From: Gammaproteobacteria bacterium
Lineage (GTDB): Bacteria; Pseudomonadota; Gammaproteobacteria; Eutrophobiales; Eutrophobiaceae
NCBI GenBank assembly: GCA_965215365.1
Contig: CBDCDS010000003.1
Span: 256,001-320,000 of the forward strand
Direction: 5' to 3'
DNA length: 64,000 bases
Shown here: one piece after another, positions 17,951 through 51,629 of the stretch
How the letters are laid out: every line of letters begins with the position of its first letter
Numbering within the stretch: the first letter of the stretch is position 1
Program-made: the position numbers and the translations under genes
Notes under the pieces: model-generated
Told to the model about the DNA's origin: nothing
The model's database searches: none
What the model saw: only the letters and a program-made list of their open reading frames with translations

Positions 17951-17968
17951 CTTATCCACAGCCTCACC

Positions 17969-35979: not shown

Positions 35980-36067
35980 GTCAAATCCTCACCTGAACCC
36001 GCAGGGAGCGTATTCCAGCCGGTATCTCTCACTAGGTGACGCGCCCTCACCTGGTGAGAAATGCAGG

Positions 36068-37342
36068 CTAACCCAGCTCGTCACCGGTTGCACTCTCCGG
36101 GCTGTCGTCTTCTTCATAAGGAGTGGTGAAATCCTCGAACTCGGTGTCGGGCCGGTAGCCCGGGTGCAGCCGGCTGAGATCCCATTCGTTAATGGCGGCG
36201 CGCACCTTATAACGCATTCGTCCCTGGAAGCCTGCTCCCCCGGCGGTCGCATCGTAAGGTGGCGGCTGCCAGTCGTAAGCCCTGTTGTACAAACTACGCA
36301 ATGCCTCTACGGCAGCTTTCACGGTGTCGTCACTGGGCGGTTCAAGGGTCAGACAGTCCCGTTCCAGCAGCCGCATGCCGAGCTCGGCGCGGGCGCTGAT
36401 AACGCGGTATTTCGCGCTCTGCTCAAGTCTCGGTCGAACGTAGTCACTATCCTTTTTTTGTCCGTCCGGGCTGATGATGGCAGAGGCAAAATCCTCCGTC
36501 ACCGCGCCGACGACTACCAGGCCAGGATAACTTTCTCCCGGCGCGCGCCCCATCCAGCGCGCAATTTCCGCGTAGGAACGACCGCGCTGTAATATGGAAT
36601 ATGAACCGATCAACTCTATTTCATCCAGAAACACGACCCAACCCCGATAGCCAGCGCTTTTAATCAGTTCGACGGCGAACCGCAACCGCTGCACCGGCAG
36701 GTCAGCGGGTTTCGGCGCACGAAATTTATAGTGTTGCAATTGACCAACCTGTTTCAGCCCGTTACGAAGCCTAGCGAGCAGTATCCGGTCTCCCGCCCAG
36801 AAGGATTCGATCTCGCTGTTGAGCTCTAGGTCCCCCGAATGCTCATGCACGCTCCGGCTGGCGGGAAAGATCATGTTCAAAAGCCCGTCGGAAGCAGCGC
36901 CATCAGCCCAGCGGGAAAAGGCCGCGTATTCTTCGGATTCCGGTTTCATGGACAGCGCGAGTTCTTCGATAAAGCGTCCCCGCCGGTCCGGAATCCGACC
37001 GTTTTCGATGGCTGACGTAAATACCTTCCCCAAGTCATACAGGGGGGTTTCCTTGCTGATGGCCACCCTGCTGCAAACGAAGCCACGGGAGAGAGCAAGA
37101 TGCTCTAGGTGCGCCAGGAGATGGGACTTGCCCGAGCCGAAGTCCCCGGAAATCAACATTCCCCGAGCATCTGCCTCCCGGCTCCGGAGGTCCGCTACGC
37201 CATCCAGCATTCGGCTGAAATGCTCCTCTGCTTGCGGCTGGTTGCAGCCCAATGCGCGCACCGCCTCCCTGTTCGGTACGCCGTTGCGCAAGGCTTCCAC
37301 CGCCCGCCGGGCGGTAAGTTTTTCGTCTGTGCCGGCAGTCAT
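36068..37342 (-). CDS. BrxD-like (DUF2791) P-loop ATPase
   Basis: AVEALRNGVP N-terminus, Walker A GDFGSGKSH, ISKETPL, GYRGWVVFLDEIE. Confidence 0.8.
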   Translation of the reverse strand: MTAGTDEKLTARRAVEALRNGVPNREAVRALGCNQPQAEEHFSRMLDGVADLRSREADARGMLISGDFGSGKSHLLAHLEHLALSRGFVCSRVAISKETPLYDLGKVFTSAIENGRIPDRRGRFIEELALSMKPESEEYAAFSRWADGAASDGLLNMIFPASRSVHEHSGDLELNSEIESFWAGDRILLARLRNGLKQVGQLQHYKFRAPKPADLPVQRLRFAVELIKSAGYRGWVVFLDEIELIGSYSILQRGRSYAEIARWMGRAPGESYPGLVVVGAVTEDFASAIISPDGQKKDSDYVRPRLEQSAKYRVISARAELGMRLLERDCLTLEPPSDDTVKAAVEALRSLYNRAYDWQPPPYDATAGGAGFQGRMRYKVRAAINEWDLSRLHPGYRPDTEFEDFTTPYEEDDSPESATGDELG

Positions 37343-37354
37343 TGGCTCCGTTCT

Positions 37355-38317
37355 CTATGAGAGCCGTACCAGGGCCGCCACCGGGTTGGCGATGTTTCTG
37401 TCGCGCACATCATCCATCACCCGGGTGCGAAGAGCGGGGTAGATACCCCAGCCCCTCATCGATTGCTCATCGACGAACGTGTAATCGGTCAACGCCACCA
37501 GCAATGTTCCCGGCAAGCGGTCGGCGTCATCGATAAACTCCCTGAGCAGTTCGTAATGTTCTATGGTCATCGCCCGTGTATAGTAGCGCTCCCCGTCCTT
37601 CGGGTTGCGGTGCAGCGTGACGCGAGTGTTGTCCAGAACAATCAGCGTGCCTGAATATCCCGCGTAACGTACCCAATAAAGGGCTGATTCGATGAAATCG
37701 CGCGCGGTAGTGCGGTTGATGGGCGTGTGAATATGGAACGGCTTGATATTGCTTATTCGGGTGTTGGTGCCCGTCAGCCAGTCCAGCAACGGCTGTCCAG
37801 CGTACTCCCCCGTTGTCGCGCGCTCCCTCTCGAAATGGCAGAGATGGGTCATGGCCACCCGAAAGGCCTTGGCCATGTTTGCATTCCTGGTGACCTCGCG
37901 CTCCAAGGCCGGCCTCAACTCGAAGAGGACAGACTGCGCTTCCTCAATGTCGTTGGCGCGAGCCACCGCGTCGATGACGTTGGCCGCGCCGTTGGGGTCG
38001 ATGCCATCGACTCGATAGGCTTGCTTCGATAGCAGGCGCAGCACCACGCGGCGCGCAAGGAGTTGCCAATCGACCTGTGATGCCAGCATGAAAAAGAGGT
38101 CCTGGGGCATGTGGACGCGACAGGTGAGCGCATCCAGCGTCACAAACAGGTACTCCTGCTCGGCGCCAAGGGCTTGCAGCTTCTCTGCAAGCTCCGGCAT
38201 TCGTTCGTTGGCGGTGACTGCGAATTTGACGGTACCGCCGCCATCCTTGATGAACGTTGAGAGGTACTCCCGGTCTATATGGCGCACCCAGTCGGCGACC
38301 GGGATAGCTTGGGTCAT
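37355..38317 (-). CDS. BrxD-like (DUF2791) paralog with degenerate Walker motifs
   Basis: DGGGTVKFAV without GxGK[ST]; GYSGTLIVLDN; YELLREFID; YPALRTRV. Confidence 0.65.
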   Translation of the reverse strand: MTQAIPVADWVRHIDREYLSTFIKDGGGTVKFAVTANERMPELAEKLQALGAEQEYLFVTLDALTCRVHMPQDLFFMLASQVDWQLLARRVVLRLLSKQAYRVDGIDPNGAANVIDAVARANDIEEAQSVLFELRPALEREVTRNANMAKAFRVAMTHLCHFERERATTGEYAGQPLLDWLTGTNTRISNIKPFHIHTPINRTTARDFIESALYWVRYAGYSGTLIVLDNTRVTLHRNPKDGERYYTRAMTIEHYELLREFIDDADRLPGTLLVALTDYTFVDEQSMRGWGIYPALRTRVMDDVRDRNIANPVAALVRLS

Positions 38318-39126
38318 CGGTCACTCCCGCTGAATCGGATTCCATAATACTCGGCGCTATCGCCCTGCGGCCCGATGAAGGAGAACAGGTCGCGGGAACG
38401 CCTGCGGGTCCCGGTAGATGAGGGGAAAGAGACCGTGGCGCCATTCCTGGTGCGACGCGGGCCGTTCGAATCCAGTATGTACAGGTCGCGGGCGAAGTCA
38501 TTGCGATCATAGTCGCGAGCACCCCCCGGGAGAGCTGTCATCAGTTTATAGATCCTGGCAAGCGGCACCACGCTGCCGCTCCCCGACGACAAGGGGTCTG
38601 CAGATGAGCTGTCCGAAATATCGGTGTAAACGCTGTACAAAGACTCAAGAAAACGTTGCGGGGGAAAGCCGCTGGATTTTTTCTGGTTCGCCAAAAGCAG
38701 GTCAACAAGATACGAGGGCCTGACCGCTACAACTCTTTTTTTATCCACTCTCACCGCACGTTCCGCCGCAAGTATCCTGACGATGGAAGGATAAGAGATC
38801 AAGAGTTCATCCTGCTCCTGAATTCTTAACCCCTTTTCGTCGGCAATGGTTTTGATAGCATCGATATACTGCTCACCGAAGAGCAGTTGTTCTTCCTCGT
38901 CCGAGAACGGCCAGCAGGAACCAGCGTTCGAGACCTCTTGGCGGAGCGCGGTCAAGCCCTCATTCAACTTCTCCTGGCAGCGCTTGATGTTTGCTACGTT
39001 GCCAGTCTGCGCGGCTTTCACCAACGCACGCGCCTGTGAGACTACATTGCTGGCGGACTTCTGCGCCGCACCGGCGGCCCTTTCAGTATCACGACAGGCT
39101 TGTTCGAAGCTGACCACTGCGCGCAC
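38314..39126 (-). CDS. Hypothetical protein, first gene of the BrxD/SNF2 operon
   Basis: 270 aa; stop overlaps the next start (ATGA). Helical N-terminus, YDRNDFARDLY near the C-terminus. GTG start has a weak RBS. Confidence 0.75.
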   Translation of the reverse strand: MRAVVSFEQACRDTERAAGAAQKSASNVVSQARALVKAAQTGNVANIKRCQEKLNEGLTALRQEVSNAGSCWPFSDEEEQLLFGEQYIDAIKTIADEKGLRIQEQDELLISYPSIVRILAAERAVRVDKKRVVAVRPSYLVDLLLANQKKSSGFPPQRFLESLYSVYTDISDSSSADPLSSGSGSVVPLARIYKLMTALPGGARDYDRNDFARDLYILDSNGPRRTRNGATVSFPSSTGTRRRSRDLFSFIGPQGDSAEYYGIRFSGSDR

Positions 39127-39144
39127 TACCGGAGATAACCCGAC

Positions 39145-39474
39145 TCAGTCGGTGCCGTACTTTGCCGGCTCTTCCGCCACGCGGCGACTGAGTAGCGCAT
39201 CGCTCAGCCCCCCCACTAGGCCTTCTAAGTGCGCCATGCGTTCGCGTAACTCGCCTATCGCTGCTCGCGTGGTTTTGAATTTTTCTTGCACGGCTTTGAA
39301 TTGTGCCTGTGTCTCTGCGCGCACGGCTTTGAATTGTGCCTGTGTCTCTGCGCGAAGGGTGCGCGTTTCTTCGCGTTGGGCGCGCTGGCCGTTGAGAATG
39401 AGGCCGGCGAGGGCGATGATGGCGCCGATGAGCGTGATGGCGGCGCTGATGATGGCGATGAGTTCCATGGACAT
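39145..39474 (-). CDS. Membrane-anchored coiled-coil repeat protein, copy 1 (109 aa)
   Basis: Hydrophobic N-terminus, RAETQAQFKAV x2, conserved tail RERMAHLEG...VAEEPAKYGTD; GGAG RBS. Confidence 0.8.
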   Translation of the reverse strand: MSMELIAIISAAITLIGAIIALAGLILNGQRAQREETRTLRAETQAQFKAVRAETQAQFKAVQEKFKTTRAAIGELRERMAHLEGLVGGLSDALLSRRVAEEPAKYGTD

Positions 39475-39524
39475 GTTCTGTCTCCTCCGTATCCGGTTTG
39501 GTACAACAGGTTATCGTGCTTTCC

Positions 39525-39552
39525 AGTGTAAGGCATCCGGGGGTGTTGTCAA
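39525..39552 (-). promoter_or_regulatory. Sigma70-like promoter of the coiled-coil cassette (present in all 4 copies)
   Basis: TTGACA-N16-TACACT here; TTGACA-N16-TATACT at 44739-44766 and in copies 3 and 4. Confidence 0.65.
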
Positions 39553-39773
39553 TGGTTTTGTGGCGGGTAGAGAGTAGTCTCTGGTACGGGTGACGTGTTA
39601 TCATCAGGTTGTGTTGCCGGATTATACCCTTATACAGGCCATAGGCCTGACAGGCCGCCAGAATTGCGAAAACTACTACTTGCCATCTTGAAGGGAGAGG
39701 TGCCTTTCAATGTCTTTGCTGACCGGAAGCCTATCGAGGAGCACCTGGCCTGCACTCGCGCAGGGGGTAAACC

Positions 39774-42422
39774 ATGAGCGAACAACGTTATACGTATGCG
39801 CGTTTTTGGAAATGTGCCCTACAGGTTAACCCTCATGGTTACAATGAGAATTACCAGGGCAGGGATCATGGCATGGATGCCAGGGTCTATGCGGAGTCTC
39901 TGCGAGATGTCTGCCTGAGTAAAAATATCCAGGTTGTCGGATTTGCGGACCATGGTAGTGTTGCAGATGCGGAAGTTGCTCGCAAGATTCTGGTAGAAGC
40001 TGGTATCGTCGTTTTCCCAGGCTTCGAAGTGGCAACTACGGAGAAAGTTCACTGGGTCTGTCTTTTTCCGGAATCCACCACAGAGCAGCAACTGGAGCGT
40101 TACCTGGGTAAGTTGAATTTGACCAATACTCAGGATGGCGCTCGTCCATCCGACCTGGGCGGACAGAAACTGCTTGCGGCTGTTGAAAATTTAGGAGGGT
40201 TTTGCTATGCCGCTCATGTGACCTCAAATAGCGGTGTCCTGAAAGGCAAGTTCAACAACCTCTGGATAGATCCTCGACTGCGAGCAGCCCAGATCCCTGG
40301 CAAGGTTGATGACCTTCCGCAAGAATACAAGCTGATAGCGCAGAACAAAAATGTTGATTATCACCGTGATAATCGGGTTGCGCTGATTAACGCCAAGGAC
40401 ATCGCAGTACCAGATGACCTCCGTAAGCCTGGCGCAGCAACCTATATTAAGATGACTCGACCTTGCTTTTCATCATTTCTGATGGCATTTAAGGACCCGG
40501 AATCACGGATACGACTTACTGACGAAATGGTAGATCGTCACTACAGCAGGATAGACAGCATTACCATTGAAGGGGGTTACTTTGATGATCTGTCAGCGGA
40601 AATATCAGGTCACCTGAATGGAGTAATTGGAGGCCGAGGCACCGGAAAGTCCACGTTGGTGGAATGTATTCGATATGCGCTGGATGTACCACATAAAGGC
40701 GAAGAGGCAATCCGGCAGGGAGATCAGATCGTCAAGGAAAACCTCGGACGGGCAGGTGGGAGAGTGATCCTGAAACTCAGGTCAGCGTCTAACCACATGA
40801 AGAATTACACAATCATCAGGCGGTATGGCGAACCGCCGCGAGTGATAGATGAGCAGAATAACGAATCACGACTGCATCCCGGTAAGGATCTCCTTCCTGG
40901 TGTAGAGATATATGGTCAAAATGAAATTTACGAATTAGCGAAAAGTCCGGAAGCCTTAACTCGAGTATTGGACCGTTTCCTGCCGGAAAGTACAGGTCAG
41001 CAAGGTCGTCTCAATGCGGCGTATCGTAAACTCAAAGAAAACACTGAACGACTGACTAAGGCGCGGGAGCAAAAAGATGAGATCGAACAGCAAATCGCGC
41101 AGCTTCCCAAGCTCGAAGAACAGGTGAGACAATTTGAGGAACAGGGTTTCGAGGAAAAACTTAAACAAGTGCCTCTGCTGGAAAAGGAACGACAACTTGG
41201 CCCCAGGGTTCTGGATGAAGTAAAATTGGCACGAAATTCTCACCTCGGATTTGCGGAGTCTATCCCAGACCTGGTATTTCTTAGTGATAAAGCTCTTGAA
41301 GGATTGCCTCATGCAGATTTACTGCGAAACGGGCGACAGGTTTTGGAGTCATTGAATGACACTTTGCACAAGAAGCTTACTGAGATTGATCATGCGATAG
41401 GCGGGGCGGAGACGGCTCTTAATGCTATTGTTGGCGAACTTGATACGGCACTTAAGACAGCAGCAAGCCAATTAGAGCAAGAATTTTCCAAGCTCCCCGA
41501 AGTTGCCGGGAAGGAGGGCAAGGAAATCGGACGTGCTTATCAGCGGTTATTGCGGGAGATTGAACAAGTTAGGCCAGCACAGGCGCGGCTGAAAACGGTG
41601 CAGGCGCTTGTCAGAGAGTTGGAACAGAGCCGGCGCAATCTGCTGGGTGAAATATCGGATATGCGTAGCGCTCGCACAGGAGCAAAGCAGAAGGCTATAA
41701 AAAGCCTCAACAAGCGTCTCGCCGGTAAACTTCGGATTGAGCTTGTTCCAGACGGCTTGCGCAAGCCGCTACGGGAATTCCTGCAGGATTTACCAGGGAT
41801 TGGAGAACGCAAAACCCAATGGGTGGACAAGGCTCAGGATTTGACGATATTCGGCCTGGTCGCCGCTATTGCGGAAGGGAAGGAGGCGTTGCTCAGCAAA
41901 GAGTGGGGATTGACATCGGGGCTTGCCGATTCTTTGCTTCGCATGACACCCGGTGACCTGTGTAAGGTGGAAGGAATCGATCTGGAGGAACAAATCAGCC
42001 TAGAGCTCAATGTGTCTCACGCGGGCGAACAGTACAGGCCTTTGGAGCGTCTGTCAACAGGGCAACAATGTACAGCGATACTGCATTTGCTGTTACTCGA
42101 TAATCAAGACCCGCTGATCATGGATCAACCGGAGGATAATCTGGATAACGCCTTTATTGCCGAACGGATAGTTCAGGAACTGCGGGCAGCCAAGACGGAA
42201 CGGCAGTTCCTGTTTGCAACTCATAACGCAAATATTCCAGTGTTCGGTGACGCTGAATGGATAGGCGTGTGTATGGCGACTGATGATCAAGCAGAGATGC
42301 CGAATGAAGCCCAGGGCTCTATTGATATTCCGTCGATTCGTGATCATGTAGCAAGAATTCTGGAAGGTGGAAAGGAGGCATTCATGCAACGCAAAGAGAA
42401 ATACGGGTTTGATTACCAGTGA
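39774..42422 (+). CDS. PHP phosphoesterase-like domain fused to SMC/ABC-type ATPase (TrlF/Ppl-like)
   Basis: N-terminal FADH/GFE/VHW/AAHV; Walker A GGRGTGKST, coiled coil, LSTGQ, IMDQPEDNLD, ATHN; lower GC than flanks. Confidence 0.82.
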   Translation: MSEQRYTYARFWKCALQVNPHGYNENYQGRDHGMDARVYAESLRDVCLSKNIQVVGFADHGSVADAEVARKILVEAGIVVFPGFEVATTEKVHWVCLFPESTTEQQLERYLGKLNLTNTQDGARPSDLGGQKLLAAVENLGGFCYAAHVTSNSGVLKGKFNNLWIDPRLRAAQIPGKVDDLPQEYKLIAQNKNVDYHRDNRVALINAKDIAVPDDLRKPGAATYIKMTRPCFSSFLMAFKDPESRIRLTDEMVDRHYSRIDSITIEGGYFDDLSAEISGHLNGVIGGRGTGKSTLVECIRYALDVPHKGEEAIRQGDQIVKENLGRAGGRVILKLRSASNHMKNYTIIRRYGEPPRVIDEQNNESRLHPGKDLLPGVEIYGQNEIYELAKSPEALTRVLDRFLPESTGQQGRLNAAYRKLKENTERLTKAREQKDEIEQQIAQLPKLEEQVRQFEEQGFEEKLKQVPLLEKERQLGPRVLDEVKLARNSHLGFAESIPDLVFLSDKALEGLPHADLLRNGRQVLESLNDTLHKKLTEIDHAIGGAETALNAIVGELDTALKTAASQLEQEFSKLPEVAGKEGKEIGRAYQRLLREIEQVRPAQARLKTVQALVRELEQSRRNLLGEISDMRSARTGAKQKAIKSLNKRLAGKLRIELVPDGLRKPLREFLQDLPGIGERKTQWVDKAQDLTIFGLVAAIAEGKEALLSKEWGLTSGLADSLLRMTPGDLCKVEGIDLEEQISLELNVSHAGEQYRPLERLSTGQQCTAILHLLLLDNQDPLIMDQPEDNLDNAFIAERIVQELRAAKTERQFLFATHNANIPVFGDAEWIGVCMATDDQAEMPNEAQGSIDIPSIRDHVARILEGGKEAFMQRKEKYGFDYQ

Positions 42423-43675
42423 CCAAGACTGAATTGCTGGAACTGATAGCGAATGGAGAGAACTCCGGAACGGAGTTCAAGCGCGATGATCTTCGCCCCG
42501 AGCAGTTGGCTAAAGAAGTTGTAGCGTTGGCTAACTTTCAGGGTGGCCGCATTCTTTTAGGGGTCGATGATGACGGAACGATCACTGGGGTTCAACGCGC
42601 TGACCTTGAGCGCTGGGTGATGGATACTGTCTTCGGCCGCTATGTTCATCCCATAATCATCCCATTTTACGAAGAAGTACAGATCGATGAAAAGTACCGT
42701 GTCGCCGTTGTAACCATAAGTCAAGGAACTACCAAGCCCTATGTAGTCCGTAACCGTGAGCGTGAAGACGTCTATATTCGGGCTGGCAGTACATCGCGCT
42801 TAGCGACGCGTGAGCAACAGGCTCGATTGTACGCACTCGGTGGCATGTTCCACGTAGAACTACTTCCCGTCTCAGGCAGCAAACTGACTGATCTTAGTCT
42901 GGACCGATTGAAAAATTACTTATTGGCCATTGTGGGTGACAAGAAATCGCCCGTGGATAACGAGGAATGGCACGAGCGCTTGTGTGGTTTGGGCTTTATG
43001 GTTGAACGCGATGACGGCCCTGCTATCTGCACAATCGCCGGTCTGCTCTTGTTTGGACATTCTCCTCGACGACTCCTTCATCAGGCCGGCATCCGTTGGA
43101 TGGCATTCAAAGGCAATGATAAAAGCTATAAAGCGCTGGATGATCAACTTATTGATGGACCACTGGTTGCCCTGCGAAAACCATCAGATGGGGGTAGGAG
43201 TGACATTACAGAAAACGGGTTACTGGAGAATATTATTCGGGTGATGCGACCATTTGTTTCAGAAGAACCAAGTGAATTAGAGGATTCATTACGACGAGAA
43301 CGTAATTGGCTGTACCCGGCAGATGCACTACGTGAGGCTATCATCAATGCGGTTGCCCACCGTGATTGGACTCGCTATGAGGAGATTGAGATTACACTGT
43401 ACGCAAACCGACTCGAGGTCTTGAGCCCTGGTGCGCTACAGAATTCGATGACAGTAGAAAAAATGTTAGCTGGCCAACGTTCACCACGCAACTCTTTGAT
43501 TGTTCAGGTTTTACGCGATTACGGTTACGTAGATGCAAGAGGCATGGGGGTAAGAAATAAAATTATTCCTCTCTTATTGGAGCAAAATCAGACAAAACCG
43601 GAATTCATAGCGACTGAGGATTACCTCAGGCTTGTCATGTATATCAGAAAGCCAAATGCCGAGACTGGAGATTGA
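42419..43675 (+). CDS. Schlafen/AlbA_2 domain protein with RecG-C-like HATPase domain
   Basis: GENSGTEFK...ALANFQGGRILLGVDDDG; LREAIINAVAHRD; SPG; RGMGV. Confidence 0.85.
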   Translation: MTKTELLELIANGENSGTEFKRDDLRPEQLAKEVVALANFQGGRILLGVDDDGTITGVQRADLERWVMDTVFGRYVHPIIIPFYEEVQIDEKYRVAVVTISQGTTKPYVVRNREREDVYIRAGSTSRLATREQQARLYALGGMFHVELLPVSGSKLTDLSLDRLKNYLLAIVGDKKSPVDNEEWHERLCGLGFMVERDDGPAICTIAGLLLFGHSPRRLLHQAGIRWMAFKGNDKSYKALDDQLIDGPLVALRKPSDGGRSDITENGLLENIIRVMRPFVSEEPSELEDSLRRERNWLYPADALREAIINAVAHRDWTRYEEIEITLYANRLEVLSPGALQNSMTVEKMLAGQRSPRNSLIVQVLRDYGYVDARGMGVRNKIIPLLLEQNQTKPEFIATEDYLRLVMYIRKPNAETGD

Positions 43676-43713
43676 AACACAATTTCAGTTGGCGCTGTAT
43701 TCTCCCGGTTCTT

Positions 43714-44003
43714 CCGCTTCAACCAACGGTAGTAGGTCGCCCTCGACCAACCTACTGCTGCCAGTGCCGTCGCCTCACCACACCCATCCTCGCGTAACGT
43801 CGCAACTAATTCCAACTGCTGCAAACGACCGAGCGCGTCAGCATCGGTAGTATCATCCACGCGCCAACTGCGATATGATTTCACCCGCTTACCTTTTGAT
43901 CTGCATCGGGTAGTCCTCCTGTGTCAATTAGTTGAGATTAATTCACACACAGACTACCCGATTTCTTTATCTAAAGAGTCTCACTTGTTTCTGAACCCGG
44001 ACA
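43714..44003 (-). mobile_element. IS481-family 5' fragment
   Basis: Left end (reverse complement TGTCCGGGTTCAG) at 44003; transposase N-terminus with the same AGG-TAA lesion as the 11121 copies. Confidence 0.85.
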
Positions 44004-44073
44004 AAGTAGCGCTATGGCAGTTCTGTTCCCTTGGGGGAGAGGTCGGGGTGAAGGGATGAAATACTCCTTAAAA

Positions 44074-44115
44074 TAAAACAGGGGCTACATCAGCAGCGGG
44101 CGCTGCCGGGTAGCC
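44074..44115 (-). terminator. Intrinsic terminator-like hairpin of the cassette (also near 45634, 46815 and 47528)
   Basis: GGCTAC...GTAGCC stem followed on the minus strand by CCTGTTTTA. The stem is longer (AGGGGCTAC/GTAGCCCCT) in the 47.5 kb copy below the RTX gene. Confidence 0.6.
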
Positions 44116-44196
44116 GTTGGGTTTGTTGACTTTCGTGAACGGGAAGTTGGGGTTGCTGCTTGAAATTCAGACTGCAACCGTTAGCTGTGGCTTGGC

Positions 44197-44688
44197 TCAG
44201 TCGGTGCCGTACTTTGCCGGTTCTTCCGCCACGCGGCGGCTGAGTAGCGCATCGCTCAGCCCCCCCACCAGGCCTTCTAAGTGCGCCATGCGTTCGCGTA
44301 ACTCGCCTATCTCTGCTCGCGTGGTTTTGAATTCTGCCTGTGTCTCTGCGCGTTGGGCTTGCATTTCTTCGCGTTGGGCCTGGAATTGTGCCTGTGTCTC
44401 TGCGCGTTGGGCTTGCATTTCTGCGCGCACGGCTTTGAATTCTGCCTGTGTCTCTGCGCGTTGGGCTTGCATCTCTGCGCGCACGGCTTTGAATTCCGCC
44501 TGTGTCTCTGCGCGTTGGGCTTGCATTTCTGCGCGCACGGCTTTGAATTCTGCCTGTGTCTCTGCGCGAAGGGTGCGCGTTTCTTCGCGTTGGGCGCGCT
44601 GGCCGTTGAGAATGAGGCCGGCGAGGGCGATGATGGCGCCGATGAGCGTGATGGCGGCGCTGATGATGGCGATGAGTTCCATAGACAT
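44197..44688 (-). CDS. Membrane-anchored coiled-coil repeat protein, copy 2 (163 aa)
   Basis: (RAETQAEFKAV-RAEMQAQ) x3 plus variants; same termini as copy 1. Confidence 0.8.
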   Translation of the reverse strand: MSMELIAIISAAITLIGAIIALAGLILNGQRAQREETRTLRAETQAEFKAVRAEMQAQRAETQAEFKAVRAEMQAQRAETQAEFKAVRAEMQAQRAETQAQFQAQREEMQAQRAETQAEFKTTRAEIGELRERMAHLEGLVGGLSDALLSRRVAEEPAKYGTD

Positions 44689-44860
44689 GTTCTGTCTCCT
44701 TTGTATCCGATTAGGTACAACGGGTTATCGTGTTTTCCAGTATAGGGTATCCGGGGGTGTTGTCAATGGTTTTTTGTTGGGTTTTGTGAGTTTTCTCACA
44801 AAACTGTGAAGGTTTTGCTGTTCGGGCTGGGGCAATTTGGTGAGATCTGCGGGCTAATTG

Positions 44861-44888
44861 TTGACAAATAAAGAAATAGCGGTACGAT
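44861..44888 (+). promoter_or_regulatory. Sigma70-like promoter of the NYN gene
   Basis: TTGACA-N16-TACGAT. Confidence 0.6.
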
Positions 44889-44901
44889 GGCACCTGTTCC
44901 G

Positions 44902-44967
44902 GGCCTTTGGCAGTAGGCTTTCCCGAGTGTTACAGGAGGAAAGCCAAACCCAAAGGCCATTTTGTTT
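44902..44967 (+). ncRNA. Putative structured leader RNA upstream of the NYN gene
   Basis: Nested stems GGCCTTTGG/CCAAAGGCC and GGCTTTCC/GGAAAGCC followed by ATTTTGTTT. Confidence 0.45.
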
Positions 44968-44991
44968 CAACGTCAGTAAAGGAATAGAATC

Positions 44992-45636
44992 ATGTCTGTC
45001 GCAATTCTTGTAGATGCAGCCTTTTTCATCAAGCGATTCCCTGCGATTTATCCAGGACTTGATAAAAGCAACCCTGAAGTGGTTGGCAAAACTTTATGTT
45101 CCATGTGTATGGAGCATGTGAAAGGAGAAGTCTTGTACAGGATACTGGTCTACGACTGCAAACCATTGAATAGAAAAAGCGCGCATCCGTTAACTGGAAG
45201 ACCGGTTGATTTTTCAAAAATACCGGGGGCGCTATTTCGTGTGGAGCTCCATAAATTTTTGAAAAAACAACGAAAGGTTGCGCTTAGATTGGGAGAGCTT
45301 ACGTCGACGGGAGCCTGGAAGATCAAGACATCTGTAACCCGTAAGCTCTTGAGAAAGCAAATCAATATCAGCGATTTGTCAAACATGGATGTTGAATTTG
45401 ATGTAAAACAGAAAGGCGTGGATATGCGTATCGGGTTAGATATTGCATCATTGTCTTTGAAAGGGATGGTTAATCAGATCATATTGATTTCAGGGGATGG
45501 CGATTTTGTTCCGGCAGCGAAACTGGCACGACGTGAAGGGATTGACTTTGTTCTTGACCCGCTCTGGTCCACATTCATTAGTGAAGGGCTTTACGAACAT
45601 ATAGACGGACTTAAATCAGTTGTACCCCGCCCGTAA
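44992..45636 (+). CDS. NYN (PIN-fold, LabA/DUF88) domain ribonuclease
   Basis: AILVDAAF, YDC, QKGVDMRIGLD, SGDGDFVPAAKLARREG, DPL, HID. Confidence 0.88.
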   Translation: MSVAILVDAAFFIKRFPAIYPGLDKSNPEVVGKTLCSMCMEHVKGEVLYRILVYDCKPLNRKSAHPLTGRPVDFSKIPGALFRVELHKFLKKQRKVALRLGELTSTGAWKIKTSVTRKLLRKQINISDLSNMDVEFDVKQKGVDMRIGLDIASLSLKGMVNQIILISGDGDFVPAAKLARREGIDFVLDPLWSTFISEGLYEHIDGLKSVVPRP

Positions 45637-45756
45637 AACAGGGGCTACGTCAGCAGCATGCGCTGCCGGGTAGCCGTTGGGTTTGTTGACTTTCGTGAAC
45701 GGGAAGTTGGGGTTACTGCTTGAGATTTAGACTGCAACTGTTGGTTATGGCTTGGC

Positions 45757-46086
45757 TCAGTCGGTGCCGTACTTTGCTGGCTCTTCCGCCACGCGGCGGC
45801 TGAGTAGCGCATCGCTCAGCCCCCCCACCAGGCCTTCCAAGTGCGCCATGCGTTCGCGTAACTTGCCTATCTCTGCTCGCGTGGTTTTGAATTCTTCTTG
45901 CACGGCTTTGAATTGGGCTTGTGTCTCTGTGCGCTGGGCTTGCATTTCTTCGCGTTGGGCCTGGAATTCTGCCTGTGTCTCTGCGCGAAGGGCGCGCGTT
46001 TCTTCTCGCTGGGCGCGTTGGCCGTTGAGAATAAGGCCAGCGAGCGCGATGGTGGCGCTTATGATTGCGATGAGTTCCATGGACAT
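45757..46086 (-). CDS. Membrane-anchored coiled-coil repeat protein, copy 3 (109 aa)
   Basis: TM segment 7 aa shorter; different heptad/hendecad combination. Confidence 0.8.
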   Translation of the reverse strand: MSMELIAIISATIALAGLILNGQRAQREETRALRAETQAEFQAQREEMQAQRTETQAQFKAVQEEFKTTRAEIGKLRERMAHLEGLVGGLSDALLSRRVAEEPAKYGTD

Positions 46087-46407
46087 GTTCTGTCTCCTTC
46101 GTATCCGGTTTGGTACAACGGGTTATCGTGTTTTCCAGTATAGGGTATCCGGGGGTGTTGTCAATGGTTTTTTGTTGGGTTTTGTGGGGTTTGTCACAAA
46201 ACTGCCAACCCGCATATCTCACCAAGTGATGCGAATATCGCCTCAACCTGCGCGCAGTAAGGGCTGGATGGCAATACCTGGGCGAAGCTCGGGGAGGCGC
46301 TGCCGTTTTCGCAAGACGAAAAAAGTTTTGTCGATCAGGTAATATGGATGTTATAGTTTGATCGTCACCGGCTTGGTGTACGTAATGCTTTACGTGGGGA
46401 TTTAATA

Positions 46408-46635
46408 ATGTCGGGATTTGACTACGAAAAGGAAATAATCGGCTACTATAAGCTCTGGCTTGGGGTGCTGCTGGTCACGGACATCAGTTTGTGTGGCTGG
46501 CTCGCAAACAACTATCTTTCGGCGCCACAGTGGTTAGTGACCGGGGCTGCTCTGTTGGTCTTTCTGACGACAGGTTTCGTCGTGTTTATTGGTTCAAGCA
46601 CCGAAAGTTTCATTAAGAAACTAAAGAGGAAATAG
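46408..46635 (+). CDS. Small two-TM membrane protein, hypothetical
   Basis: 75 aa, two hydrophobic segments, basic C-terminus. Confidence 0.6.
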   Translation: MSGFDYEKEIIGYYKLWLGVLLVTDISLCGWLANNYLSAPQWLVTGAALLVFLTTGFVVFIGSSTESFIKKLKRK

Positions 46636-46637
46636 CT

Positions 46638-46724
46638 ATGGATATGTTTGTCGCACTTATGATGGTGAGCGTCGGCTTGGTGTTTTGTTACATGGCCTAC
46701 AGGGCCACCCGGAATTTGAAGTAA
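46638..46724 (+). CDS. 28-aa hydrophobic peptide
   Basis: GAGGA RBS; MDMFVALMMVSVGLVFCYMAYRATRNLK; starts 2 bp after the previous stop. Confidence 0.45.
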   Translation: MDMFVALMMVSVGLVFCYMAYRATRNLK

Positions 46725-46936
46725 CTGCAGAACTTACCCGTTTTACGCCCAGCTGTCTTACCGAGGTTAGCGGGAACTACCGTGTCCGGTGGGAAAATAA
46801 ACCACTCCCTGCAATAAAACAGGGGCTACGTCAGCAGCGGGCGCTGCCGGGTAGCCGCTGGGTTTGTTTACTTCTGTGGACGGGAAGGCTGGGTTGCTGC
46901 CGGGATTCAGACTGCAACCGTTGGCTGTGGCTTGGC

Positions 46937-47362
46937 TCAGTCGGTGCCGTACTTTGCTGGCTCTTCCGCCACGCGGCGGCTGAGTAGCGCATCGCTCAGT
47001 CCCCCCACCAGGCCTTCCAAGTGCGCCATGCGTTCGCGTAACTCGCCTATCTCTGCTCGCGTGGTTTTGAATTCTTCTTGCACGGCTTTGAATTGGGCTT
47101 GTGTCTCTGTGCGCTGGGCTTGCATTTCTTCGCGTTGGGCCTGGAATTGTGCCTGTGTCTCTGCGCGTTGGGCTTGCATCTCTGCGCGCACGGCTTTGAA
47201 TTCCGCCTGTGTCTCTGCGCGCTGGGCTTGCATCTCTGCACGCTGGGCTTGCATTTCCTCTCGTTGGGTGCGCGTTTCTTCTCGTTGGGCGCGTTGGCCG
47301 TTGAGAATGAGGCCAGCGAGCGCGATGGTGGCGCTTATGATGGCGATGAGTTCCATAGACAT
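46937..47362 (-). CDS. Membrane-anchored coiled-coil repeat protein, copy 4 (141 aa)
   Basis: Same termini, another repeat combination. Confidence 0.8.
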   Translation of the reverse strand: MSMELIAIISATIALAGLILNGQRAQREETRTQREEMQAQRAEMQAQRAETQAEFKAVRAEMQAQRAETQAQFQAQREEMQAQRTETQAQFKAVQEEFKTTRAEIGELRERMAHLEGLVGGLSDALLSRRVAEEPAKYGTD

Positions 47363-47620
47363 GTTCTGTCTCCTTCGTATCCGGTTTGGTACAACGGGTT
47401 ATCGTGTTTTCCAGTATAGGGTATCCGGGGGTGTTGTCAATGGTTTTTTGTTGGGTTTTGTGAGTTTTCTCACAAAACTGTGAAGGTTTTGCTGTTCGGG
47501 ATGGGGCAATGGGACGGGGGGTACAAATAAAACAGGGGCTACGTCAGCAGCATGCGCCGCCGGGTAGCCCCTGGGTTCGTTTACTTCCGTGAACGGGAAG
47601 TTTGGTTACTACTTTACTGA

Positions 47621-50600
47621 TCAGGCCACCAAGATGAAACCACCTTCACCTGCTTCGAACACCTCCGGATCATTACCACTAGCAATATTAAATATCTTCA
47701 GGCTGGTGAGTTTGCCATCACGACCAACTTCACCTACACCCCCCAGACTGTTAACACCATCCAAGATGATTTTCCCGCCGCCGACTGAGGTCAAATCGAT
47801 CCTGACGTTGGTACCGAACACATCAATCAGATTCATCAAATCCGCCTCTTTGAGGTTGTAGGCAGACAGATCAATGGCGTCATTTTCAAGGCTGGTAAGA
47901 CCGGAAATAACATCGTCTCCGTTTCCATCGGCAGGGCTGAACACAAAGGTATCCTGACCAGCGCCGCCATCCAGTTGGTCATCCCCAGCACCGCCATTGA
48001 TCGTGTCATCGCCGGAACCACCGGTAATTTTGTCATTGCCCGCATCGCCGTGCAGCTCGTTATTACCGCTTGCGGCACGTATAATATCGTTGCCATCGCC
48101 GCCGTACAGCTTATCGTCGCCAGCGCCGCCAATCAACATATCATCACCCCCCATGCCTTTGAGAACATTGGGGTTGTCATCGCCGGTCAGTGTGTCTTTC
48201 TGGTTGGAACCGGTCAGGTTCTCGATACTGCCCAGCCTATCGCCAGCAGCGCCATTAGTCTCGGGGTTTTCATCGACATCAAAAGGAGAACCGGGGTTCA
48301 TGAGCATAGACGGGACACCTTCTGCATCAATACCATTACCATCACCCGCCGTGATCGTAGGAGTATCCACTGTACCGAATACAAACGGCTCTCCTTTGGT
48401 ACCCATGCCTGTAACCTGCTTTGTATCATTATCGGTCACCAAGCTCACGGTAACACCTACCATAGAGGCCTCGTAGGATACGGTATCGCGGCCGCCATCA
48501 CCCTGAATCAGGTCAGCGCCAGAGCTGGCGATGAAAATGTCATCATGTTCGGAACCCCAAACCAACTCGATGTTGTTCAAGATATCGCCGTCGGCATCGC
48601 CGCGGGTGCCTCTACCAGTAGCCAGATTAACCGTGATGCCAGCGGTTGCGTTCTTATAGACGGCCCAGTCGATGGAAGCGGGCTTCATTTCGCCTGGATC
48701 AACGGTACCGTTTCCATCGGCATCACCAGGCACCATGTTGTTCCTTTCATCTTTATCCTCACCACCGTCCAGCATGTCGGCGCCCGGACCGCCGGTCAGA
48801 CGGTCGGAGCCGGCGCCGCCCCGGAGGGTATCATTGCCAGCGCCACCGTTCAGGTTATTGTCGTGGTCATTACCGGTCAGGCTGTCGGCGTACTTGGAAC
48901 CGGTGATGTGCCGGAACGTCGCGACATCAACCGTGTTGTTCGGATCACGTCGCGTCGGTGCGCTTTCTTCGTAAGTCACAATAGTATCGCCTTCGGCATG
49001 ACCGCCGGCAGCGCTGGCCGTGGCCAGGTTTATCGTGACACCTGCGTTAGACGTGGCGTAGAGCAGGGTGTTGGCCTCGAAATTCGGATTGCCCTTGTCA
49101 TCTTCAGCATCGCCGGCAGCATCGCCGGCATCATTGGCAGGTGTATAGCCACCGTCCAATTCATCCGCGCCAGCACCGCCTTCAATCGTATCGTTACCAC
49201 CGGCACCGTCTATATCGTCATCACCGTCCATCCCCCACAGCTTGTTAGCGACCATGTTACCGGTTAAATCATCACCGTAGGCAGAACCTCTGATGTTTTC
49301 AAAGTTGGTGGCTGTATCGCCGGAGGCGTGGCCTCTGGACGCAATCGCAGCAGCACCATCACCATCTCGCAGCTCGACCCTGACCCGGGTATCGGAATGG
49401 CGGTAGGAGAGAGTGTCTTCGCCCTCACCACCATCCAAGGTATCTCCACCTTCGTGACCTTCGATTTCGTTATCATGACGATTGCCCGTCAGGGTATCAT
49501 CGTCCTGAGAACCGATGATGTTTTCAATATTTTTCACAGTACCACGGGCTGCGCCCCCGACAGTGATATTACCTGCTAACAGATCCACCGTAAGACCCTC
49601 ATCTAACAACGCGAAAGAGACAGTATCAACCGCGTTCGGGTCTCCCTCCGCTTCAGTTTCTGAAGGATCCATAACCATAACCCAACCATCAACTTTATCC
49701 CCAGGCCTAGCATGAATCATATCGCTGCCAGCGCCGCCATAGTACGTGTTAGTGCCTCTATTACCCCACAAATGGTCATTGCCAGGGCCGCCGAAGAGCA
49801 TATCATCACCGGCACCGCCGAAGATTCTGTCGTTGCCCCTCCCACCATAAAGCGTATCGTCATTGTCGATACCAGAGTTCGTACTGCGCGCATCGGTCGG
49901 ATTCGGGCCGCCGTAAATCGTGTCATCGCCATCGCCGCCCCGGATGGTGTTATCCCTGAAATCACCGGCCAGGATATCGTTGTAGGCCGACCCGGTCAGG
50001 TCTTCAACATCAGCCAGCATGACGGAGGTGGAATCCCCGTCGCTGTTGGTATAGTCAGTCTCAGCCGTCAGGCTCCAAGTATCGCCTTCGGCGTCACCCA
50101 ACATGGCCTGCCCACTGTGCAGGCGCACTATGACACCCATCGGGGACATGCTATAGGAAGCTATATCGCTCCCGGCGCCACCGGTCAGCATGTCGGCGCC
50201 GGGGCCGCCTTCGAGGGTGTCATCGCCGTCGCCACCGGTCAGCATGTCGGCGCCGGGGCCGCCCCAGAGCTTGTCATCGCCCCGGGCGCCGTCCAGCATG
50301 TCATCCCCATCAAGCCCCCACAGTTTATTGACTCGTCTACTACCGGTGAGCACGTCGTCATAGGCAGAACCGATGATGTTCTCAATCCGGTCATTGCCCT
50401 TGTCAACGAGGGTATCGCCGTCGGCATCGCCGCCGCGCGCCGCGCCACTGGTCAGATTGATGGTGACGCCCACCATCGAACCGACATAGGTGATGGTGTC
50501 TTCACCATCACCCCCGCTGAGCGCGTCAGCCCCCGGACCGCCTGACAGCAGGTCATCGCCATTCCCGCCATTCAGCTTGTCATCGCCGCCCATGCCGTAC

Positions 50601-51163
50601 AAGGAATCGTCACCGTTCAGACCGTTGAGCGTATCGTTCTGAGCGCCGCCCTTGATTTTGTCGTCTTCATCTGTGCCCGCCAGAGTCCCACCGACAGTCG
50701 TCGCTGGCACCTTCTTCTCATTCAACGTCACCGTGTAGTCAGCAGACGTCATAATGACATTTGTACCCGGGTTGCCCGTATAGGCACTCACTGCGATAAA
50801 GTACTTCTGCGTGCCACTGCCGGCTTCGGGCGTAAACTTAAGCTTAGGATGCAGTGCGGTTGAGACGCCGTTGGAGCCCACAACATCATCTTCCATCTTG
50901 ATTTCGCCGCCCTTTCCATCGTACAGCGTCAAAATGGTATCGGTAAGGGTATCACTACCCTCTATGGAAAACGTGTACTCATTACCCTCGCTCAGCTCGA
51001 CCGCAATCCAGTCCACATCGTGCTTGGAGGTCAGGGTGCCCTTAACCGTGCTTGCCACTGATTTACCATCAAACGGCCCGTTCGGCGGCATGAAGCTAAG
51101 CTCAGTGCTCGTATCTGCGGGCGCATCCTTGCCCATCAACTTGCTTTCGTCTCGGTCTGGCAT
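47621..51163 (-). CDS. RTX (hemolysin-type Ca-binding) repeat protein, probable type I secretion substrate
   Basis: Many GGxGxDxLx nonapeptides and IENxxGS repeats; N-terminal DVDW PPC-like domain; AGGAG RBS before ATG 51163. Confidence 0.9.
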   Translation of the reverse strand: MPDRDESKLMGKDAPADTSTELSFMPPNGPFDGKSVASTVKGTLTSKHDVDWIAVELSEGNEYTFSIEGSDTLTDTILTLYDGKGGEIKMEDDVVGSNGVSTALHPKLKFTPEAGSGTQKYFIAVSAYTGNPGTNVIMTSADYTVTLNEKKVPATTVGGTLAGTDEDDKIKGGAQNDTLNGLNGDDSLYGMGGDDKLNGGNGDDLLSGGPGADALSGGDGEDTITYVGSMVGVTINLTSGAARGGDADGDTLVDKGNDRIENIIGSAYDDVLTGSRRVNKLWGLDGDDMLDGARGDDKLWGGPGADMLTGGDGDDTLEGGPGADMLTGGAGSDIASYSMSPMGVIVRLHSGQAMLGDAEGDTWSLTAETDYTNSDGDSTSVMLADVEDLTGSAYNDILAGDFRDNTIRGGDGDDTIYGGPNPTDARSTNSGIDNDDTLYGGRGNDRIFGGAGDDMLFGGPGNDHLWGNRGTNTYYGGAGSDMIHARPGDKVDGWVMVMDPSETEAEGDPNAVDTVSFALLDEGLTVDLLAGNITVGGAARGTVKNIENIIGSQDDDTLTGNRHDNEIEGHEGGDTLDGGEGEDTLSYRHSDTRVRVELRDGDGAAAIASRGHASGDTATNFENIRGSAYGDDLTGNMVANKLWGMDGDDDIDGAGGNDTIEGGAGADELDGGYTPANDAGDAAGDAEDDKGNPNFEANTLLYATSNAGVTINLATASAAGGHAEGDTIVTYEESAPTRRDPNNTVDVATFRHITGSKYADSLTGNDHDNNLNGGAGNDTLRGGAGSDRLTGGPGADMLDGGEDKDERNNMVPGDADGNGTVDPGEMKPASIDWAVYKNATAGITVNLATGRGTRGDADGDILNNIELVWGSEHDDIFIASSGADLIQGDGGRDTVSYEASMVGVTVSLVTDNDTKQVTGMGTKGEPFVFGTVDTPTITAGDGNGIDAEGVPSMLMNPGSPFDVDENPETNGAAGDRLGSIENLTGSNQKDTLTGDDNPNVLKGMGGDDMLIGGAGDDKLYGGDGNDIIRAASGNNELHGDAGNDKITGGSGDDTINGGAGDDQLDGGAGQDTFVFSPADGNGDDVISGLTSLENDAIDLSAYNLKEADLMNLIDVFGTNVRIDLTSVGGGKIILDGVNSLGGVGEVGRDGKLTSLKIFNIASGNDPEVFEAGEGGFILVA

Positions 51164-51629
51164 CTCTTTTTCTCCTGTGCTAATCAGTAGAAGTAAACGA
51201 ACTTTTTGGCGCATTCATGCGGTAGATCGCATTATTACATACTTTTGAAAAAAAACAATCACTGTTCACAAATATCGCAATTTAGCGGCTATAAGTCAAC
51301 ACAAATCTCTAAATTTTGTCAATGGGGCTCCCTTACGGTGTGTTGCCCATGGTACAACTTTTTTCGATCTGTCGCAATATACCGGTGTTCACGGAATATG
51401 TCAACTGCATAATAAAAAAAAGTTGCAGGCATGTCAACATATTTGCCCGCCGAACTTCCCCATGACCTGTAATCTTCGCAGTGTGCCAAGTTTATCTGGT
51501 GTTGTCAACAAAATAATAGAAAAAATATTTTGTTGTCAAGTCTTTTGGTAGTTTACCTGAAATTCTTTTGTAAATGTACGGCAAAACAACCTTATTCTGA
51601 CCATTCTCACCCATATCGGGGCGCTTGTC

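Follow-up and report, generated by a model that had tools for sequence, protein, structure and literature searches.

Repeated RTX-linked small genes with variable, defence-type cargo between gltB and an RTX gene: most likely a kind of defence hotspot in a gammaproteobacterial genome

The stretch of 64,000 nucleotides (nt) analysed here, called the window throughout, covers positions 256001-320000 of contig C3 (G000:C3:256001-320000) in the source genome G000 (2.7 Mb; contigs C1, C2, and C3). Between gltB and a gene for an RTX protein the window contains four near-identical units on the minus strand, each encoding a member of a small unnamed protein family for which "FAM" is used as working name, and unrelated genes are found between these units. 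Most likely, the locus represents a kind of defence hotspot which is built on an uncharacterised family of RTX-linked, expressed small genes lying as direct repeats. The initial annotation had proposed an integron-like scaffold in which cargo is gained or lost between the repeats. We consider it rather probable that the content changes by ordinary (RecA-type) recombination between the units together with the activity of insertion sequences (IS), and not by an integron-like machine. A sister genome (G006), present as a single contig, was used for comparison. The features of the locus are listed below with their window coordinates (ORF, open reading frame; aa, amino acids; TM, transmembrane segment).

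29116..33744, minus strand: gltB, glutamate synthase large subunit (Pfam GATase_2, Glu_synthase and others); conserved flank
33883..39126, minus strand: accessory operon of four genes with Pfam, PADLOC, and NCBIfam matches, all below the curated NCBIfam cut-offs
39145..39552, minus strand: FAM copy 1, ORF 39145-39474 (109 aa), promoter 39525-39552
39774-42422, plus strand: TrlF-family/Ppl-like PHP-ATPase (NCBIfam NF045780, 527.8 bits at a cut-off of 350; PADLOC Ppl, 8e-36)
42419-43675, plus strand: Schlafen AlbA_2 plus HATPase_c_4 protein (Pfam SLFN_AlbA_2, 2e-21), overlapping the PHP-ATPase gene
43714..44003, minus strand: partial IS481-family IS, first 290 nt of 1133, outer end toward terminator 2
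44071..44836, minus strand: FAM unit 2, terminator 44071-44151, ORF 44197-44688 (163 aa), promoter 44739-44766, palindrome 44781-44804
44992..45636, plus strand: NYN-domain protein (Pfam NYN, 2.4e-8; phrog_5783, 6.7e-72), convergent with FAM copy 3
45631..46204, minus strand: FAM unit 3, terminator 45631-45711, ORF 45757-46086 (109 aa), promoter 46137-46164, degenerate palindrome 46179-46202
46207..46241, strand not assigned: dispersed repeat of 35 nt, in place of the left part of the upstream region of unit 3
46408-46635, plus strand: ORF of 75 aa with two TM
46638-46724, plus strand: gene for a hydrophobic peptide of 28 aa
46812..47510, minus strand: FAM unit 4, terminator 46812-46892, ORF 46937-47362 (141 aa), promoter 47413-47440, palindrome 47455-47478
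47525..47605, minus strand: two-hairpin terminator element closing the RTX gene (repeat family D5; -38.7 kcal/mol, z-score -4.45)
47621..51214, minus strand: RTX protein, 1197 aa (Pfam HemolysinCabind, 6e-84)

The syntenic locus of the sister genome (L027) has the order RTX, one FAM, small hydrophobic ORFs, gltB, and gltD. Positions 8559-9089 of L027 align to window positions 47119-46627, and from position 9340 on L027 aligns leftwards from window position 33787 with 93% identity. Between FAM and gltB, 12.8 kb of the window (33788-46626) stand versus about 250 nt in G006. These 12.8 kb comprise FAM copies 1-3, the four-gene operon with SNF2- and BrxD-like products, the TrlF/Ppl-like ATPase gene with the Schlafen-AlbA_2 gene, the partial IS, and the NYN gene. 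By this comparison the RTX-adjacent FAM copy 4 and the gene of the 28-aa peptide are ancestral, the latter because it is present in G006 between FAM and gltB. The two-TM protein and the 28-aa peptide had together been regarded as cargo, which does not hold for the peptide; the 75-aa two-TM ORF sits where G006 has a different small ORF.

Two further loci behave similarly. The C1 locus (mlaA, glycosyltransferase, hpnH-like radical-SAM gene, array, and RTX) is syntenic with L026 of G006. Its array has one intact FAM gene and two truncated ones, between which a PIN/MazE-like pair and a DUF5615 gene are located; L026 has two intact FAM genes without PIN/MazE or DUF5615. On C2 the order is RTX, FAM, small ORF, FAM, FAMb, FAMb, and pgi (FAMb is a related gene type described below); in L028 of G006 it is FAM and pgi. 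Three syntenic loci hence have FAM in G006 without the inserts of G000, and the earlier proposal that the cargo varies across relatives is borne out by this cross-genome comparison. With variable accessory content at a conserved position between gltB and RTX, the locus has the appearance of a defence hotspot.

The existence of four near-identical minus-strand units, encoding 109, 163, 109, and 141 aa, was confirmed by the ORF list, a DNA alignment, and a repeat finder. All four copies align across promoter, ribosome-binding site (GGAG), and gene and have ~150 nt upstream in common, and copies 2-4 are additionally alike over ~125 nt of 3' flank (DNA alignment; repeat families D2, D3, and D5). 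The sigma-70-type promoter described before each unit was found again, all four being among the best matches of the promoter scan: TTGACA-16-TATACT with 11 of 12 matches for copies 4, 3, and 2 (47440-47413, 46164-46137, and 44766-44739) and TTGACA-16-TACACT with 10 of 12 matches for copy 1 (39552-39525). The anatomy ascribed to copies 2-4 proved to be common to them, and copy 1 has neither the terminator nor the upstream palindrome.

The terminator element occurs in four places, namely in units 2-4 and directly after the RTX stop codon, at 88-100% identity, which confirms that the terminator of copies 2-4 also ends the RTX gene. Its fold comprises two hairpins, one small and one long, and a U-run after them, UGUUUUAUU, with -25.5 to -38.7 kcal/mol and z-scores of -2.1 to -4.45; the 3' sequence of copy 1 has no such fold (z-score +1.24). 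With a GC-rich hairpin plus U-run at a gene 3' end, the four elements match the pattern predicted for an intrinsic (Rho-independent) terminator. An Rfam scan of positions 38500-52000 (E<=1) gave no match.

Upstream of the -35 box a palindrome of 24 nt, GTTTTGTGAG-AAAA-CTCACAAAAC, was found, which contains TGTGA-N6-TCACA. Nine such sites exist genome-wide, seven of them in these promoters. FAMb is a second type of membrane coiled-coil gene with 11-residue repeats (RINEVENKLSD), having the same palindrome and terminator together with a different core promoter. Of 23 canonical FAM genes in the two genomes G000 and G006, 21 have TGTGA-N6-TCACA upstream with up to one mismatch, at a distance of 111-118 nt from the ATG, and the palindrome is also kept before FAM genes at several other loci of the genus. 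The FAMb genes of G000 are the following.

C2 5270-5730 and 5976-6400 (locus L021): FAMb genes
C3 about 1648980-1649540: FAMb gene

Two minus-strand ORFs on C2 of 153 and 134 aa, the longest ORFs there, had been considered as cargo and were rejected as antisense artefacts of the FAMb genes. The consensus site of CRP is TGTGA-N6-TCACA, and class I CRP promoters have their site near -61.5. In the FAM units the palindrome lies ~61 nt upstream of the inferred transcription start, and the distance from its centre to the -10 box is 49 nt in FAMb and 48 nt in FAM. As this distance is constant in two unrelated core promoters, it fits an activator site near -61. One CRP/FNR-family gene of the genome, at C3 2446338-2447072, scored above the Pfam cut-off; its product has a recognition helix of the pattern R-E-x-x-x-R, which presumably is linked to TGTGA recognition. 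The palindrome fits a putative operator with CRP-type class I geometry.

Several lines of evidence concern the way in which the locus changes. First, the units are mosaics. Over the 150 nt upstream, copies 2 and 4 share 96% identity; for the first 60 nt of the gene, copies 1 and 2 are 98% and copies 3 and 4 95% alike, and over the last 150 nt of the gene copies 3 and 4 are 99% alike. Second, the block terminator-FAM4-small ORFs-FAM3 (45634-47614) is found again on C2 with 92% identity. Third, the upstream flank of the window RTX gene is 87% identical to L026 of G006 over 719 nt, its downstream flank being orthologous to L027. With an upstream flank of the L026 type and a downstream flank of the L027 type, paralogous loci appear to have swapped flanks. 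Furthermore, a block of RTX and five FAM genes, which G006 has between a tyrosine recombinase gene and an ABC gene, is missing from G000. Copy number, repeat number, and flank combinations all differ among copies, loci, and genomes. The borders of the inserts vary as well: for NYN and the ancestral block the border comes after the U-run, for unit 3 at the palindrome, and for unit 1 at about -45, and on C1 borders fall within FAM genes. The NYN stop codon is the TAA at 45634-45636, within the first bases of the repeat (U/A-run of the terminator), as had been described before.

Remains of mobile elements are found at these junctions. The IS481-family IS is represented by at least 25 near-identical full copies of 1133 nt in the 2.7-Mb genome, one of them in the window.

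53190-54322: full copy of the IS481-family IS, 1133 nt, DDE transposase ORF 53288-54313

The 290-nt piece at 43714-44003 has at least 30 genomic copies with 94-98% identity, and a depth spike was seen there in contigs from read runs. The 35-nt dispersed repeat (46207-46241) accounts for about 86 of 131 matches, the first 45 belonging to the IS query, and an 18-nt piece similar to it lies in the upstream region of unit 2. An 87-aa "HTH" ORF (43621-43884) was dismissed as an independent gene, as it lies mostly within the partial IS copy 43714-44003.

Shifting junctions, mosaic identities, swapped flanks, and IS debris together point to homologous recombination, accompanied by IS activity. With a likeness of 80-99% and three or more loci per genome, the units would act as portable homology. 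In this genus the RTX 3' flank carries one to several tandem FAM units, predicted to be transcribed separately; unequal crossing-over and gene conversion between them, along with IS activity, would fix or lose foreign DNA lying between units. In this strain the outcome would be a defence islet of 12.8 kb in place of about 250 nt in the sister species. The inserts would also borrow the units, the operon being fused behind unit 1 and the plus-strand cargo converging on a unit terminator. If correct, this describes one route by which a defence islet could grow without an integrase, a multi-copy, self-contained gene supplying homology, promoters, and terminators. The earlier suggestion that the repeats serve as recombination substrates with differing content in between agrees with the mosaic identities, the G006 loci, and contigs from two other studies (runs X6 and X7). 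In the latter, position 45633 is joined to 47517, placing NYN against the RTX terminator. The joint skips 1883 nt and omits FAM3, the small ORFs, and FAM4.

A number of points weigh against this interpretation. The short side of the X6/X7 joint has 34 letters, lies in a 91%-identical repeat, and was aligned at 88% likeness; the joint may come from a k-mer assembler switching between repeats. We are aware of the fact that recombination was inferred from compared sequences and that no event was seen directly. The NYN block lies exactly where a terminator and a promoter meet, possibly with a duplicated TTTA of 4 nt, a configuration more reminiscent of insertion than of homologous exchange. In other species the same cargo did not turn up between FAM units, nine NYN loci having neither FAM nor terminator nor palindrome within about 1.5 kb, and any transfer of cargo via flanking homology is therefore hypothetical. 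The operator reading draws on the palindrome position and the CRP consensus. Finally, a conserved RTX-linked tyrosine recombinase tracks FAM-rich genomes, and this gene is considered in detail below.

An assembly artefact, with repeats collapsed or mis-joined and the alternation of units and cargo unreal, was also considered and is judged very improbable. The breaks between the three contigs fall in RTX and ABC genes, C2 beginning within an RTX gene and overlapping the start of C1 with its end. Additionally, no short-read contig covers a whole unit, and run X11 yielded short pieces only. Runs labelled "sponge metagenome" contained a share of 0.11-0.13 of the sequence words, which gives no indication of habitat, and none of the listed runs containing the sequence is of RNA. 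As no contig spans the whole repeat, the order of the blocks rests on the assembly. However, contigs of an independent study (X5) match every unique segment with 0-1 differences and bridge the junctions at 36517-39196, 44807-45663, and 46157-46845. The junctions of units with cargo flanking the NYN block, the small-ORF block, and the operon are likewise reproduced by them. Runs X6 and X7 contain the operon-copy 1 junction, which is thereby found in contigs of three other runs, as well as the TrlF-Schlafen-IS block. The four copies moreover differ in repeat number and point changes. Given the overlap of C2 and C1 in the type I secretion ABC gene and the start of C2 inside an RTX gene, the three contigs are probably one chromosome broken at repeats.

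The term "integron-like" used in the initial annotation was not upheld. What is repeated is a full conserved gene that has a promoter and a terminator of its own, and tight arrays free of cargo exist in relatives. Junctions lie at differing positions of the unit, most cargo is antiparallel, and IS fragments are found at junctions. The absence of an integrase from the window, noted earlier, was corroborated: a Pfam scan of 51 ORFs of the window (21 + 30) revealed neither a tyrosine nor a serine recombinase. No IntI-type integrase was found at the array, and the recombinase orthologs of G006 and G014 gave no match to an integron-integrase model (NCBIfam, E<=0.01). Sites of the attC type at fixed borders were not detected in a general Rfam scan, no dedicated attC finder being used; the borders are scattered. 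Nor are there promoterless same-strand cassettes with a common promoter, as every FAM unit brings its own promoter and is antiparallel to TrlF, Schlafen, NYN, and the small ORFs.

Outside the window, a tyrosine recombinase gene is linked to RTX loci.

C2 14797-15765 (L021): RTX-linked tyrosine recombinase of G000, between dxs and the ABC gene
L022 2275-3243 and L024 13210-14193: orthologs of this recombinase

It adjoins RTX genes of ~1000-1900 aa, usually divergently, in 12 loci (L022, L024, L053, L055, L060, L133-L137, L038, and L040). Four orthologs are 65-77% identical to each other, and orthologs of the genus are 66-95% identical to the G000 copy. A site-specific cassette system, in which this recombinase acts on the terminator hairpin or the 9-6-9 palindrome and moves units plus cargo as an integron analogue, would accommodate its position beside RTX genes in these 12 loci. 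The gene was found in 14 of 23 genus genomes, in all eight genomes with at least five FAM matches and in 6 of 15 with fewer; since the genomes are kin, this co-occurrence is not an independent test. Exactly the block of RTX and five FAM genes between recombinase and ABC gene is missing in G000, two homology breakpoints (FAMb promoters, unit 3) abut the palindrome, and G014 has arrays in both orientations around the recombinase. Nevertheless, we regard such a system as unlikely. No tyrosine recombinase gene lies within the window, and the NCBIfam matches of the G006 and G014 orthologs are weak and Xer-like (E about 1e-12), far under the cut-offs and without an integron-integrase model. Cargo borders vary, and two C1 FAM genes are truncated by cargo. 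The constant distance from palindrome to -10 in two unrelated core promoters is activator-like, the recombinase also occurs in G013 and G011, both without a FAM match, and the synteny of dxs, recombinase, and RTX/type I secretion genes can be explained by vertical descent. The recombinase may drive multiplication or rearrangement of RTX paralogs, and as an RTX-adjacent gene it provides a lead on how large surface or secreted-protein genes multiply and move. In G013 the gene lies between RTX genes, and no FAM match was found there.

Returning to a hotspot shaped by recombination between units and by IS, the inserted genes were inspected individually. The genes of the accessory operon are:

38314-39126, minus strand: 270-aa protein without assigned family
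37355-38317, minus strand: BrxD-like protein, 320 aa
36068-37342, minus strand: BrxD-like ATPase, 424 aa
33883-35979, minus strand: SNF2 helicase, 698 aa

The first ORF of the operon begins 18 nt past the stop codon of copy 1. With an 18-nt gap and no terminator in between, this SNF2/BrxD-like operon is probably read from the promoter of copy 1. The SNF2 part scores like ZorD/DpdE (E 1e-71 to 1e-67), without the N-terminal parts of these proteins. Of 300 genomes of the class that were scored for the 270-aa protein, a single one had it, G000 itself. The four genes gave no match to any complete known defence system, and the operon is a candidate for a new one.

The plus-strand cargo, namely TrlF, Schlafen, NYN, and the small ORFs, opposes the array. 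NYN, the small ORFs, the TrlF-Schlafen pair, and the DUF5615 gene on C1 end at or near a unit terminator, which has an A-run on the opposite strand; the TrlF-Schlafen pair is separated from it by the IS fragment. The unit terminator would then act in both directions. Eight of 23 genus genomes have NYN homologs; G006 is not one of them. Nine NYN loci in the genus have no FAM, terminator, or palindrome within about 1.5 kb, indicating that NYN has no fixed FAM partner. A transposon-like NYN block was tried and rejected, the best score for terminal inverted repeats being 11 versus a shuffled median of 13. The 28-aa hydrophobic peptide (MDMFVALMMVSVGLVFCYMAYRATRNLK) is conserved at window 46638-46724 and at about 8990-9080 of L027, convergent with the RTX-adjacent FAM gene. 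It looks like a small membrane toxin-type peptide, to which read-through from FAM would be antisense.

Matches to defence-type genes comprised TrlF above its cut-off, Ppl, BrxD, the ZorD/DpdE-like SNF2 protein, and NYN below theirs, and PIN/MazE and DUF5615 on C1. The description of the cargo as defence-like was right in so far as the inserts are mostly of defence or toxin-antitoxin types; a complete known system was not recognised among them. Between FAM copies of other genomes YoeB/YefM, HipA plus an HTH protein, DUF5615, Uma2, a reverse transcriptase, IS110 and DDE transposases, relaxases, and ankyrin proteins were found. In total, 107 ORFs between FAM copies of other genomes were scanned; most had no match, and many are probably no genes. 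A 171-aa ankyrin-repeat protein is encoded at window 25807-26322, and in L035, L039, and L114 ankyrin genes are found next to FAM genes or between them.

FAM members have an N-terminal membrane segment (MSMELIAII...LAGLILNGQ) and a C-terminal motif (RERMAHLEGLxxGL...RRVAE). They differ by blocks of repeats, the lengths of the copies varying by 54-nt (18-aa) repeats made of sub-units of 7 and 11 residues. AlphaFold2 with an alignment gave a single helix over residues 3-101 (mean predicted local distance difference test score 84.9), so the predicted protein is a membrane helix continuing into one long helix with 7+11-residue repeats. Membrane-protein topology follows the positive-inside rule; applied to the charged stretch QRAQREETR directly after the membrane segment, it suggests that the long helix is in the cytoplasm. 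Of 630 candidates from a word-indexed search, 546 proteins reached E<=0.001, none of them with a name other than "hypothetical". Using a profile search of 1.84 billion representatives, 1408 were found at E<=1e-3, 231 at E<=1e-10, and 5 at E<=1e-30. In Pfam and NCBIfam no family reaches its curated cut-off for FAM; PspB scored 18.6 bits versus a cut-off of 51.7 (E 0.0017) and DUF2730, a phage Mu-like releasin family by the name of its Atlas cluster, 23.1 versus 24.9. PHROG matches were weak (best E 3e-5) and mostly to families lacking an assigned function; those with names were an Rz-like spanin and tape-measure proteins. PADLOC gave weak matches of the coiled-coil type only, including PD-Lambda-1 N-termini, and in the Protein Atlas FAM matched solely unnamed clusters (0.92-0.93). 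Like FAM, the small bitopic coiled-coil proteins PspB and DUF2730 have an N-terminal membrane helix and a helical, heptad-rich tail within 70-160 aa; unlike these, FAM has the RERMAHLEGL motif and the 7+11 repeats as features of its own, and the scores are far under the cut-offs. Among longer proteins 21 matches included no informative fusion. A literature search at the level of titles and abstracts found no report of the FAM family or of RTX-linked small-gene arrays. An uncharacterised coiled-coil family of small, membrane-anchored proteins with 1408 cluster representatives has been brought to light.

The link of FAM to RTX genes is close in the genus. In G000 all three full-length RTX paralogs of ~1200 aa are followed by FAM; the window RTX protein is 54-55% identical to the C1 and C2 paralogs. 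In G006 six of nine full-length RTX paralogs are followed by 1-5 FAM genes on the same strand, and three FAM loci have no RTX gene. In G006 the units of an array follow each other closely, at about 650 nt, without genes inserted between them. Five FAM copies lie in L022 of this genome between the RTX gene and the type I secretion genes for ABC, HlyD, and TolC, and L023 is a tight, cargo-free array of four copies. FAM stands immediately before ABC-HlyD-TolC in L022, L040, and L046 and at most 3 kb away in L060. Using at least six GxGxD motifs as criterion, an RTX-like ORF was found in 18 of 28 fetched genus stretches. FAM itself was detected in 18 of 22 other genus genomes versus none of 18 sampled genomes of other genera. 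Within the genus the neighbourhood of FAM with an RTX substrate gene and ABC/HlyD/TolC genes therewith appears conserved. As a best guess, FAM would be a membrane-anchored coiled-coil protein that is abundant and regulated and is connected with the RTX/type I secretion locus.

Beyond the genus, a wider scan found FAM relatives in metagenome-assembled genomes which by record title belong to Gammaproteobacteria, Binatia, Acidobacteriota, Gemmatimonadota, Alphaproteobacteria, Dehalococcoidia, and others. Outside Gammaproteobacteria FAM is mostly single, and an RTX neighbour was seen at none of 50 loci versus 9 of 17 gammaproteobacterial loci. Sixty neighbour ORFs scanned in other phyla formed a mixed set with no constant partner. 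A protein with a coiled coil and an Hjc-like (PD-(D/E)XK) part is encoded beside the window RTX gene.

51759..52433, plus strand: coiled coil plus Hjc-like (PD-(D/E)XK) protein with weak Pfam Hjc matches, divergent from the RTX gene

Such Hjc-like coiled-coil genes with tandem 11-residue repeats are divergent from RTX paralogs at three loci (window 51759-52433, L026 11611-12330, and L037 14827-15486).

One may ask whether FAM genes are themselves defence genes or protect the membrane (exclusion, abortive infection) and cluster with defence systems, the repeats having no role in capture. The units are free-standing with their own promoter and terminator, the repeat length varies, and elsewhere FAM lies among toxin-antitoxin pairs, transposases, relaxases, restriction genes, and ankyrin genes. 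The occurrence in metagenome-assembled genomes of many phyla, as titled, suggests horizontal spread, and PspB (E 0.0017), DUF2730, and the PD-Lambda-1 N-termini are weak look-alikes. All family matches, however, are under their cut-offs and of the kind that coiled coils usually give. In viral contigs none of 109 pattern matches to the FAM profile was confirmed, and tblastn of a FAM protein versus plasmid and phage records gave no match. The arrays of the closest relative have no defence neighbours and lie between RTX and type I secretion genes, and the neighbours at the 50 loci of other phyla are mixed, many of them housekeeping genes. We therefore consider a defence function of FAM itself improbable. 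A joint reading, in which FAM units and the recombinase form a new cassette-exchange system and FAM is a new anti-phage or envelope-guard family under a cyclic-nucleotide regulator, appears quite unlikely. If true, self-expressed "carrier" genes bounded by hairpin terminator and palindrome would be excised and re-inserted with adjacent cargo, and defence genes would be moved among RTX loci and, via related units, among co-resident bacteria of different phyla.

The hotspot built on FAM units, which we prefer, was also compared to known arrangements. Sedentary chromosomal integrons have cassette arrays, some with defence genes, attC sites of 60-140 nt, and an IntI integrase. As in these, repeats alternate here with small unrelated cargo, part of it of defence or toxin-antitoxin type, and the content varies between strains. 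Unlike in integrons, an IntI-type integrase is missing from the array, the repeated element is an entire expressed gene and not attC, borders are unfixed, cargo is mostly antiparallel with one block driven by a unit promoter, and cargo-free arrays exist. Phage "morons" are promoter-gene-terminator units inserted between genes. The FAM unit resembles them as an autonomous transcription unit from promoter to terminator, which in other phyla stands single among unrelated genes; it differs in that FAM was not found in phage and viral collections and is tandem and RTX-linked in the genus. Core defence hotspots at conserved chromosomal positions of P. aeruginosa (PMC10250203) and P2/P4 defence hotspots (PMC9122126) reportedly share with the gltB-RTX locus a fixed position with strain-specific content of defence type and no dedicated integrase on site. 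The present locus is different in being built of multi-copy paralogous units that also occur at other loci and lend promoters and terminators. As the units are also present at other loci, exchange would be possible within and between loci of one genome.

Elsewhere in the window, three tandem AAA_22/AAA_16 ATPase genes of ~500 aa were observed at 9230-15212 with a period of about 2267 nt. Truncated IS481-family copies at 11121-11411 and 13388-13678 separate these genes. An 885-aa subtilase (Peptidase_S8) gene at 15302-17959 is convergent with the adjacent AAA ATPase genes.

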